DNA of 64,000 nt from a virus. Taxonomy: Duplodnaviria > Caudoviricetes. The DNA is taken from IMG/VR virus record IMGVR_UViG_3300033066_001396, positions 32,001 to 96,000 of that record; one strand, given 5' to 3'. Within the stretch, counting starts at the first letter, position 1. Every line of letters begins with the position of its first letter. This document shows positions 22,211 through 46,548 of this stretch, piece by piece. The translations under genes were made by a program, and so were the position numbers. A model generated the notes under the pieces. That model was given only the letters and a program-made list of their open reading frames with translations, searched no databases and was not told where the DNA came from.

Positions 22211-22363
22211 AACCTACTATTGTCGATGTGGGTGGGTAAAATCATTTCCGCTAACGGAAAACGGCTTGCTGATGTCAGCACAAAAGTTTAATAAGTGTAC
22301 TTCTGTTGGTTTAAGCACATCAGCCCTGCTTTTGCCAACATAATGTTGGGCGTAGTTTTTCTT

Positions 22364-22555
22364 ATGGAAATTAAAATTGATAGAAACGAAGAAAGAATGG
22401 AAGTCAAAAAAATTAAGATTTTCACTCAAAATAAAGAGTTCACCATTTACATTGACAAGTTTGGTGAATTGATTGTAAACAAAGAGCAATACGGAAAGGA
22501 AGAAAGCGGCATTGTTGTTAGACCTAAAGTGTCTAATGAAATTGGGTTGTCTTAA
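22364..22555 (+). CDS. hypothetical cassette protein
   Basis: ORF between GTTGGGC and GCCCAAC boxes. Confidence 0.6.
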   Translation: MEIKIDRNEERMEVKKIKIFTQNKEFTIYIDKFGELIVNKEQYGKEESGIVVRPKVSNEIGLS

Positions 22556-22623
22556 AATTACGCCCAACGTTTCCGCTATGAGTAGTGGCGGTTTTGGAAC
22601 TACTCACTATCAAAATACAATAA

Positions 22624-23730
22624 ATGACAATAGAAAGCACAAACGATAATAACAGCACGAACACCGCCATTACTTATAGCGATTGTTATGCACAGGTTTT
22701 TTCTCGTCTTTTTTTAGGGGATTGCCTTATTGAAAGCGATAAAATTGAAAATTATTCAGTTGATATGATTTTAACTGATTTACCTTATGGCACAACTGCT
22801 TGTAGTTGGGATGAGATAATACCATTTGAACCAATGTGGAAAATGTTTTACAGAGTATTGCGACCAAATGGATTTATAGTATTAACTGCTTCGCAACCAT
22901 TTACAAGTAAATTAGTAAGTAGTAATATTGAAAATTTTAGTCATAATTGGGTTTGGAATAAGAAGCGAGGAACTGGACACTTATTAGCTAAAAAGCGACC
23001 AATGATGGCAAGTGAAGATATAGTTGTATTTTCAAATGAATTAAAAAAACACGATAACACTGGAGAAAACCCTGTACGAGAATATTTAGTAAATGAGAAG
23101 AAAAAAAGCGGAATGACGAACAAGGATTTCAATTTGCTATTTTCAAAATACACTAATAAAGAAGGATGTATAAATAGAAGTGTGATTGAACATTATTGGG
23201 GTAAAGCACAATTTACATTTCCAACACAAGAAATTTATGAGAATGTATTGCAACCTACGGGGTATTTTCAACAACCATATTCATATATTTATGAAATAGG
23301 CAAACCATACAGAGAAAATAATAATAAACTACTTGGCGAAAAATACCCAAGAGTTTTTAACCCACAAATGAGAGAAAGAAATAAACCAAGATTATCAAAA
23401 AATAATGGTAATACAGAAGTGTATGGTAATCAAAATAAATTTAATGGTGAAATACTTGAGGAAAGTTATCCGATAAATATAATTGAATTTGATAAAAGTG
23501 GACATTCAAATATGTTGCACCATCCAACACAGAAGCCACTTGAATTATTAGAATACTTAATAAAAACCTATACCGATGAAGGAATGATTGTACTTGATGC
23601 AACAATGGGAAGCGGTAGCACTGGGGTCGCTTGTAAAAACAGTAACCGTTCTTTTATCGGCATAGAAAAAGACGAAGCATATTTCAAAATAGCAGAACAG
23701 CGAATAAATGCACGGACGCTGTTTTCTTAA
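22624..23730 (+). CDS. N4-C/N6-A DNA methyltransferase (beta class), cassette-borne
   Basis: GDCL, ILTDLPYG, HPTQKP, LDATMGSGSTG, GIEKD; ATG lies in the loop of the upstream hairpin site. Confidence 0.93.
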   Translation: MTIESTNDNNSTNTAITYSDCYAQVFSRLFLGDCLIESDKIENYSVDMILTDLPYGTTACSWDEIIPFEPMWKMFYRVLRPNGFIVLTASQPFTSKLVSSNIENFSHNWVWNKKRGTGHLLAKKRPMMASEDIVVFSNELKKHDNTGENPVREYLVNEKKKSGMTNKDFNLLFSKYTNKEGCINRSVIEHYWGKAQFTFPTQEIYENVLQPTGYFQQPYSYIYEIGKPYRENNNKLLGEKYPRVFNPQMRERNKPRLSKNNGNTEVYGNQNKFNGEILEESYPINIIEFDKSGHSNMLHHPTQKPLELLEYLIKTYTDEGMIVLDATMGSGSTGVACKNSNRSFIGIEKDEAYFKIAEQRINARTLFS

Positions 23731-23739
23731 ACTTGTGCA

Positions 23740-23800
23740 TAACATAGAGATTGACGAAATATGAACATACAACTAATTAGCAATAAACCAATTGTATTCC
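23740..23800 (+). repeat. array-terminal 61-bp repeat, copy 1
   Basis: 54/61 identical to 46488-46548 by manual alignment. Confidence 0.9.
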
Positions 23801-23824
23801 TAAGTTAAAAACAAAACACTACAT

Positions 23825-45297: not shown

Positions 45298-45451
45298 CGG
45301 TAGGGCTTTGCGATGTGTGGGCATCGAAGCACAAAAGCTGAATAACCCACAAAAGCATCATAGAAGTACGATGCTGAATATTAGTACTTCTGCCACATAT
45401 AGCAAAACCCCTGTTATATGCTGTGCTTTCTTAGGGGTGTAAAATTTAGAT

Positions 45452-45790
45452 ATGGCAAAAACAGTCAAGTTACAAGAACTAAACAGACAATATGAATTTG
45501 TCTGTAATGAATGGGTAAGAAAATTTTGCAATAAACAGCAAATTGATTTTGATGGTTGGGTAGGTGATGAAGTTGGTGGCATTGCTTCGTTTGCTTGTCA
45601 ATATTTTTTCAATTTGTCTGATATTATTTTAGACTTAAACACAAAGCAACCAAAAGGTAATATTTTAGATTGGCAAAGTGAAGATGTTGATTTTAATATG
45701 TTCAATGAAAAACAACAACATATTAATTACAAATCTTACACAATGGGTTTAAGGCACGAACAATTAAAAAATGTAAGCAATGAAAAGTAG
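45452..45790 (+). CDS. hypothetical cassette protein
   Basis: ORF inside the 45413-46128 cassette. Confidence 0.7.
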   Translation: MAKTVKLQELNRQYEFVCNEWVRKFCNKQQIDFDGWVGDEVGGIASFACQYFFNLSDIILDLNTKQPKGNILDWQSEDVDFNMFNEKQQHINYKSYTMGLRHEQLKNVSNEK

Positions 45791-46103
45791 TTTAAGATTA
45801 CCGATAAGGATAAAAGCAAAACACAAATTAATGAAATGGGATGTTGTATTAAACCCTGTATTCTTTATGTATCATAATGCTTTTGAGGTAAAGGTAATTA
45901 AAGGCAGTTTGTCAAGTAGCATTTTTTGCTGTAAAATATCTGAATTTGAATATAACTGGTATGCTAAATGTCAAATATGGTTTATATGGAAAATATACTG
46001 GTGTCGTAATGTTTTTTGGCGATATGTAAGGTATCAACTTCCTTATAAAATTAGGATGTATTTTAAAACGAAACAAGCTATGTCCGATGACTTGCCATTT
46101 TAG
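45780..46103 (+). CDS. hypothetical cassette protein
   Basis: Second ORF inside the 45413-46128 cassette. Confidence 0.6.
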   Translation: MKSSLRLPIRIKAKHKLMKWDVVLNPVFFMYHNAFEVKVIKGSLSSSIFCCKISEFEYNWYAKCQIWFIWKIYWCRNVFWRYVRYQLPYKIRMYFKTKQAMSDDLPF

Positions 46104-46202
46104 AGTGCTGCACAGCATAGCATATAACGGTAGGGATTTACGCTCGTTATTTTTAGCGGGATTAGAAGCAAAAACTTTAATAAACAACTAAATATAAATA
46201 AA

Positions 46203-46490
46203 ATGAAACAGACATCAAAAAAAGCGAAAATGCCCGCTAAAAATAATGGCGTTAAATCTATTGTTAGCAGCAGTAGCGTGTTCATAAATGACCGTTACTC
46301 TCATTTGAAATTCAAAACAATGGCAACACCAACTCAACTAACTATTGGAATGATGGTGCAGATTTGTGAAAGCAACAAACAACCATTAAGTTGGGAATGG
46401 AATGAGATAACAGTTGAGTTGCTAAATAAATTGTTGGTGATGCCATCCGATAAATACAAATGGATACGGATACCGAGCTATTGCTGCTAA
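46203..46490 (+). CDS. hypothetical cassette protein
   Basis: ATG in hairpin loop; TAA inside the closing GCTAAC box. Confidence 0.65.
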   Translation: MKQTSKKAKMPAKNNGVKSIVSSSSVFINDRYSHLKFKTMATPTQLTIGMMVQICESNKQPLSWEWNEITVELLNKLLVMPSDKYKWIRIPSYCC

Positions 46491-46548
46491 CATCTGTATT
46501 GACGCAATATGAACATACAACTACTTAGCAATAAACCAATTATATTCC
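46488..46548 (+). repeat. array-terminal 61-bp repeat, copy 2
   Basis: 54/61 identical to 23740-23800. Confidence 0.9.

Follow-up and report, generated by a model that had tools for sequence, protein, structure and literature searches.

A window of 64,000 nucleotides (nt) from a wastewater phage, comprising bases 32001-96000 of the 124.6-kb virus record IMGVR_UViG_3300033066_001396 (approximately 80% complete), contains two short arrays of gene cassettes, one at approximately 22253-23743 and the other at approximately 43404-46491, with about 20 kb of ordinary phage genes between them. There is a high probability that these arrays consist of mobile cassettes belonging to an integron-like system of site-specific recombination that is common to Flavobacteriaceae-type phages of the Bacteroidota and their hosts. 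Because an IntI-type integrase is missing and the cargo is reversed, the system is not an integron in the strict sense, but it most likely works like one. The arrays comprise two and three to four sites, respectively, and no integrase is encoded in the record. The G+C content of the array blocks was 0.32-0.37 versus approximately 0.38-0.42 for the backbone; the blocks are somewhat AT-richer, as already noticed in the initial annotation of this DNA.

The five cassettes (c1 to c5) and their hairpin sites are listed below in window positions; open reading frames (ORFs) are given with their lengths in amino acids (aa). Bit scores refer to a covariance model, R1, which was built from phage sites only and is tuned to a class of sites of 116 nt.

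22253-22344, plus strand: hairpin site of cassette 1, degenerate (site proper from 22256); it begins at the AAC of the preceding arm remnant and gives a weak R1 match at 22253-22359 (22.7 bits, E = 0.012).
22345-22568, plus strand: cassette 1, with left arm 22345-22359, a 63-aa orphan ORF (22364-22555) matching no Pfam or PHROG family, and right arm 22554-22568.
22569-22684, plus strand: hairpin site of cassette 2, with an 18-bp stem containing two G·T wobbles (R1, 100.7 bits); the methylase ATG at 22624 lies in the loop.
22685-23743, plus strand: cassette 2, with left arm 22685-22699, an N6/N4 DNA methyltransferase ORF (22624-23730; PF01555, 1.7e-29), and right arm 23729-23743.
43407-43523, plus strand: hairpin site of cassette 3 (R1, 97.9 bits), with an in-frame ATG at 43444 in the loop.
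43524-45298, plus strand: cassette 3, with left arm 43524-43538, a C5 cytosine DNA methyltransferase that likely spans 43444-45297 (PF00145, 1.3e-37), and right arm 45284-45298.
45299-45412, plus strand: hairpin site of cassette 4 (R1, 95.7 bits).
45413-46128, plus strand: cassette 4, with left arm 45413-45427, orphan ORFs 45452-45790 and 45780-46103 (phrog_35741), and right arm 46114-46128.
46129-46262, plus strand: hairpin site of cassette 5, with a stem of approximately 25 bp (R1, 57.8 bits) and an ATG at 46203 in the loop.
46263-46491, plus strand: cassette 5, with left arm 46263-46277, a 95-aa orphan ORF (46203-46490), and right arm 46477-46491.

The orphan ORFs of cassettes 1, 4, and 5 total four, and the two DNA methylases carried as cargo probably counter host restriction.

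When the window was searched for 15-mers whose reverse complement lies within 4 kb, five inverted-repeat pairs were prominent (22345/22568, 22685/23743, 43524/45298, 45413/46128, and 46263/46491). They are the flanking 15-nt repeats of the initial annotation, and all five were present: the left arm is GTT followed by 12 nt, the right arm is 12 nt followed by AAC, and 14 of the 15 positions are complementary in each pair. The sole mismatch was located at position 11 in every pair, where G in the left arm opposes T in the right arm, resulting in a G·T wobble on the plus strand and an A·C mismatch on the minus strand. Mononucleotide-shuffled windows contained 0-1 GTT/AAC pairs with at most one mismatch (mean of approximately 0.35), and a search of the whole 124.6-kb record yielded no further pair with the full arm signature. 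The view that the arms are peculiar to each cassette had to be abandoned: they belong to a family with roughly GCAGT or GTAGT at positions 8-12, and identical arms recur in other phages.

The element between each AAC and the next GTT comprises 114-134 nt, typically approximately 116 nt, and is built of a 5-6-nt spacer, an imperfect stem of 17-25 bp, a loop of approximately 70 nt, and a second spacer of 2-3 nt, in line with the imperfect hairpin initially described at this position. The stem contains bulges and is rich in G·T wobbles on the plus strand, some at conserved positions. In an alignment of 21 sites, the borders AAC-G and T-GTT (the hyphen marking the junction with the core triplet) were invariant in 21/21, the stem covaried over 17-22 bp, and compensatory changes were observed at eight of the nine predicted outer stem pairs. 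Among 84 sites found with R1, 87.5% of the cells were paired versus 55.6% in shuffles and approximately 40% with the partners slid, and 413 double-change cells were counted versus 144. One stem pair (columns 31/225 of alignment A2) was G·U in 52 sites, A-U in 23, and G-C in none. Like the wobble at arm position 11, it seems to be selected as such and is perhaps a mark for strand choice. With DNA parameters, the circle-form succession of right arm, hairpin, and left arm was predicted to fold as one long bipartite hairpin, with energies of -22 to -31 kcal/mol versus -9 to -13 kcal/mol for shuffles. The plus strand always folded better than the minus strand, by 1.5-4.6 kcal/mol, in agreement with the earlier proposal that most wobbles favor plus-strand folding.

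The limits of the mobile unit were determined with relatives of the c2 methylase from 20 IMG/VR loci. In 12 of these, a homologue with 41-74% amino acid identity was enclosed by arms identical or near-identical to those of c2, and 10 of the pairs were letter-for-letter the same. In these 12 loci, the ATG precedes the left arm and is placed in the hairpin loop; its distance from the arm is 61 nt in 10 of them. Homology among 13 c2-type cassettes started right after the preceding AAC and ended at the cassette's own AAC, and the neighbors were unrelated, many of them being cassettes with other arms. Thus, the mobile unit is composed of hairpin site, left arm, cargo, and right arm, in this order. 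The initial annotation had each cassette bracketed by its arms; the exchanged unit extends from just after one AAC to the next AAC, and the hairpin belongs with the gene downstream of it. Several contigs contained four to nine such units in a row. Arms identical to those of c5 enclosed a 1195-nt unit in locus L018. In IMG/VR locus L062, the same arms as those of c4 enclosed an 82% identical c4 homologue; its right boundary was exact, and the cassette downstream of it was a different one.

Gain, loss, or re-ordering of cassettes in relatives had been set beforehand as a test of the proposal, and both replacement and re-ordering were found, with breakpoints exactly at the AAC core. Variants of array 2 were followed using assembled Logan contigs of four public runs placed on 42000-47800. 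In run X4, which derives from another sample and study, the backbone was covered at a depth of approximately 60, most pieces being at least 99% identical. Its contig over c3 departs from the window at 45299, the first base past the AAC of c3, into a different hairpin site; the contig over the genes downstream joins the window at 46488, which is the TAAC end of c5, and has another right arm ahead of this point. The depth over c4 and c5 was near zero. Thus, c4 and c5 are replaced by other cassettes in a near-identical phage, with both breakpoints on AAC cores. In run X12, an RNA-seq library from a third study, c3 was flanked by foreign sequence before 43403, where another right arm ends in TAAC, and after 45299.

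Sites of the same family were found in bacterial chromosomes. An 18-nt probe from the c2 junction matched cassettes in Bacteroidota assemblies, and R1, applied to hosts as had been suggested, gave matches in 126 of the 151 Flavobacteriaceae genomes in the sample, and many of these genomes had 10-20 matches or more. In five genomes examined in detail, the sites formed long one-strand arrays, the largest with approximately 75 sites over 75 kb. A tyrosine recombinase was encoded 0.5-8 kb past the same end of the main array and on the opposite strand in all five; this is not a chance association, because only 4-7 genes of this kind are present per genome of approximately 3 Mb. The array-end recombinases are of one type, with open frames of 376-410 aa and 128-142 bits on PF00589, and two of them were 37% identical, including an N-terminal extension of approximately 100 residues. 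They belong to the Xer/IntI clade (NF040815 at or above the cut-off), score 199-213 bits on TIGR02249 versus a cut-off of 265, and have 18 residues where Vibrio IntI4 (2A3V) has a 61-residue stretch (182-243) that holds the integron-specific insertion. A search for phage-borne relatives of the host recombinase gave one weak match and was uninformative, since the peptide patterns derived from the N-terminal extension only.

A further candidate, a 433-aa integrase of Aequorivita antarctica (locus L044, 4331-5632; contig G008:C32), lies beside cassettes but was not counted as the enzyme of the system: it is of another type (51 bits on PF00589), is encoded on the same strand, and is situated at the 5' end. 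At 6059-7048 of this locus, 430 nt downstream of the integrase gene, a c2-type hairpin with the left arm TGTTATGCACAGGTTTTT precedes an unrelated ORF, which is encoded on the opposite strand, and a right arm is lacking; the same chassis has different cargo here.

In two chromosomal arrays that were fetched, the arms had the same GTT/AAC ends and the G·T at position 11, and the ORFs were on the opposite strand, co-directional with the recombinase. Counting the cassette-filling ORFs as sense:antisense to the folding strand gave 29:0 for phage loci versus 0:19 for host arrays (two of the five genomes' arrays plus one in Aequorivita), and the phage genes are indeed inverted relative to classical attC, as first noted. 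This count bears on the explanation that the stems act at the RNA level, each phage gene lying in an mRNA helix (GUU...AAC with G·U) behind a 5' hairpin that would serve processing, stability, or translational control, with the boundaries arising from phage mosaicism. All wobbles are indeed G·U on the coding strand of the phage genes, start codons of phage cassettes are often inside the hairpin loop and stop codons in or just before the right arm, and units were present in contigs of the RNA library (run X12). In the host arrays, however, the site family with the same G·T positions is antisense to the genes. The wobble-marked strand is therefore kept while the genes flip between phage and host, so the structure acts in DNA and cannot be an mRNA element in both. 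The nucleotide-exact breakpoints at AAC in many unrelated contexts and the termination of host arrays at a recombinase also speak against RNA-level elements, which we consider very unlikely. Self-cleaving ribozymes, group I introns, retron-like elements, and RNase III sites were discarded in view of the DNA exchange with exact ends, the antisense position in host arrays, and the lack of Rfam support; at gathering and permissive thresholds, Rfam returned just three tRNAs, all outside both arrays, plus noise, and matched none of the sites.

The arrays resemble integrons and clusters of attC sites lacking integrases (CALINs) in being unidirectional, in consisting mostly of single-gene cassettes, and in the form of their sites, which are imperfect palindromes with AAC...GTT cores, spacers that stay unpaired, and a variable loop. 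In both, the sequence past the crossover belongs to the next cassette, so that the two ends of a cassette are complementary. Virulent phages with CALINs have been reported (Qi et al. 2023, PMC9892861), one of them being Polaribacter phage P12002L, which has cassettes for methylases; the carriage of DNA methylases is shared with the phage described here. It therefore has to be weighed whether the arrays are classical integron remnants with ordinary attC sites that are serviced by a true IntI of some host. The layout of AAC, spacer, stem, loop, stem, spacer, and GTT fits attC, the arms of cassette 3 even carry canonical GTTAGGC/GCCTAAC cores, and HattCI called a P12002L site of the same family an attC (PMC9892861). 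When the published primer sequence of P12002L_attC1 was mapped to the genome, it marked a short site of the family (AAC-G-spacer-stem-loop-stem-AT-T-GTT) between two methylase cassettes. P12002L contains short hairpins of this family as well as several arm pairs that have the wobble at position 11; R1, with its tuning to the 116-nt class, gave no match to this genome at E ≤ 0.1. P12002L_attC1, a family-type site, was the only one of the phage sites that IntI1 failed to recombine (PMC9892861). Integrons are almost absent from Bacteroidetes according to the IntegronFinder 2.0 paper, in contrast to the wide occurrence of the present sites among Flavobacteriaceae.

Several further properties set the system apart from integrons. 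It has no IntI, and the associated host enzyme lacks the IntI insertion and scores below the integron-integrase cut-off. The ends of a cassette pair over 14-15 bp with a fixed G·T at position 11, not over 7 bp, and the sites of approximately 116 nt often contain the start codon. Phage cargo is sense to the folding strand, the reverse of the integron orientation, which only the host arrays match; and in those arrays the recombinase gene points the same way as the cassettes instead of diverging from them. Classical integron remnants are regarded as a highly improbable explanation.

No recombinase was found near the arrays or elsewhere in the phage record: the 124.6-kb record had no match to PF00589 (tyrosine recombinases), as the initial annotation had indicated for the vicinity of the arrays, and none to serine recombinases or the Y1 transposase PF01797. 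These searches are relevant to a third explanation, in which the units are single-strand transposon-like elements in the style of IS200/IS605 or palindrome-associated transposable elements (PATEs) that insert 3' of an AAC target, moved by an HUH/Y1 or other enzyme that is possibly phage-encoded and unrecognised. Arrays would then build themselves, as each unit lies 3' of AAC and ends in AAC; in addition, the left end has a subterminal hairpin, and the fold is strand-specific. Unlike IS200/IS605 elements, however, the units have no hairpin at their right end, which pairs with the left arm instead, and no Y1 transposase accompanies them; the host arrays are tied to a Xer/IntI-clade tyrosine recombinase, and within arrays all units point in one direction and are clustered instead of being scattered. 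We therefore regard single-strand transposition as very unlikely.

For the integron-like system, the following mechanism is proposed. The right arm, hairpin, and left arm would fold on the single-stranded plus strand in an order equivalent to R'-L'-loop-L''-R'' of the attC bottom strand, the conserved G·T wobbles making the plus strand the preferred folder. A tyrosine recombinase would act on these folded single-stranded sites, with the crossover at or beside the invariant AAC-G, where integrons cut, and cassettes would be exchanged as AAC-to-AAC units, presumably through circular intermediates and possibly also between phage and host. That the recombinase is encoded elsewhere, as previously suggested, is plausible in view of the Xer/IntI-clade enzyme next to the host arrays in 5/5 genomes; which enzyme acts on the phage sites we can only infer. 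The most likely candidate is the host's array recombinase, which would operate in trans during infection. Whether Flavobacteriaceae-type phages keep a pool of inverted cassettes of their own, with sense-oriented cargo relative to the folding strand and a start codon within the hairpin, that is serviced on single-stranded phage DNA during infection by a host Xer-like recombinase without the IntI insertion is in our estimate an evenly balanced question. In this scenario, integron-type chemistry would have evolved or been retained without the IntI domain, the G·T wobbles would be the strand-choice mark, and the host system would be one that is, as far as we found, undescribed.

Several findings weigh against this interpretation. 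The candidate enzyme is not encoded in the phage record, and a tyrosine recombinase was also absent from five further phage records with arrays, of which three are complete. Pairing between the arms of adjacent cassettes in an array covers 3-4 bp only (AAC/GTT), which does not readily account for how excision sites are recognized. Contigs that share hairpin and arms but differ in cargo, such as contigs of run X3 with the hairpin and arms of c4 without the c4 cargo, are not explained by a single crossover at AAC. No excised circle, empty-site joint, clean cassette-deletion joint, or active recombination was seen with the assembled contigs, in which rare forms are hidden. Finally, the start and first codons of phage cassettes lie within the hairpin and left arm, so that an additional role in mRNA is possible.

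Two other systems invite comparison. The PeSL mobile regulatory cassettes of T4-type phages, reportedly described by Arbiol and co-workers in 2010, are said to consist of promoter and stem-loop repeats and to act via homologous recombination. Small phage accessory genes are likewise shuffled there as modules between short stem-loop repeats; in contrast to the present arrays, PeSLs are not known to have an AAC/GTT core, complementary ends specific to each cassette, or an association with a tyrosine recombinase. In the rAID-1 arrays of gut Bacteroidales, a XerD-like recombinase heads a series of low-GC orphan genes that run in the same direction and are separated by repetitive sequences 'reminiscent of integrons' (Ross et al. 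2019, bioRxiv 10.1101/471110). The Flavobacteriaceae arrays found with the phage-derived model are alike in layout. Unlike the present arrays, rAID-1 arrays were described for immunity genes of Bacteroidales chromosomes and not for phages, their hairpin-and-arm anatomy and mechanism were not defined, and they are headed by a recombinase, which is lacking in the phage record. A full-text literature search of incomplete coverage retrieved no published account of the site family, the arms, or the link between phage and host. Megablast against INPHARED phages revealed no near relatives, and a search for related loci with a 445-aa flanking protein gave no match.

Integrons are the textbook gene-capture device and are thought to need the IntI-specific domain. 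If the link to the host enzyme holds, cassette recombination at hairpin sites would be wider and mechanistically more flexible than the IntI paradigm, and standard integron finders would be missing a large stock of mobile genes in a phylum of major ecological importance. Lytic phages would then have a concrete route for exchanging anti-defence genes as exact modules, the two DNA methylases being the case at hand, and could swap anti-restriction and accessory genes by hijacking the gene-capture system of the host. Testable hypotheses on strand choice follow from the conserved G·T wobbles and from the cargo being oriented oppositely in phages and hosts.

Apart from the five cassettes, the following features belong to the arrays or their immediate surroundings.

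23744-23801, plus strand: right flank of array 1, approximately 57 nt, approximately 88% identical to the flank of array 2, with the truncated start of a 65-aa ORF.
24479-24493, plus strand: orphan right-arm-like box AAAATTACAGCCAAC, directly 3' of the stop codon of ORF 23825-24472; 13/15 of its positions agree with the cassette 1 left arm.
42505-43406, plus strand: possible decayed cassette, with the arm-like sequence GTTATATGAAGGTGG at 42505-42519 and a right-arm remnant ending in TTGCCTATAAC (43406), the pairing being just 12/15.
44497-45195, plus strand: HNH endonuclease insertion of 699 nt in the C5 methylase, with the HNH ORF 44508-45155 (PF01844) in another frame; the methylase frame stays open.
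46492-46548, plus strand: right flank of array 2, common to array 1 and followed by the 65-aa ORF 46509-46706; it is constant in the X4 variant despite the differing cassettes.

The copy of the 65-aa ORF at array 1 is truncated after 15 codons. The shared flank of approximately 57 nt was absent from every other locus fetched and may be a docking site or merely a duplicated junction. Arm remnants at 22255 and 43406 were without a convincing left partner; at the junction of the possible decayed cassette, a contig of run X4 with a loose end at 43396 carries an intact AGCATTGCCTATAAC arm. The box at 24479-24493 may be left over from a larger and older cassette that later insertions split. At record positions 105038-105373 (9 kb past the end of the window), a weaker GTT/AAC pair, GTTATTAAACTGATA and TACCGGTTTAATAAC, with a T·G wobble at position 11 and one mismatch, may represent a sixth, decayed unit.

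Alleles of the C5 methylase in runs X3, X4, and X6 have 39 nt in place of the HNH insertion, which encode the same short motif region. From this comparison of alleles, the HNH insertion is therefore judged to be a separate mobile insert outside the cassette system that brought along a recoded copy of the segment it replaced. Around the arrays, free-standing HNH endonucleases and a large methyltransferase-like protein are encoded at 25073-25573 (minus strand), 40892-41680 (plus strand), and 30742-32343 (plus strand); genes for DNA modification and for homing-type nucleases are unusually abundant in this phage. The three tRNA genes recognized by Rfam are located at 10009-10081, 18342-18413, and 52778-52850.

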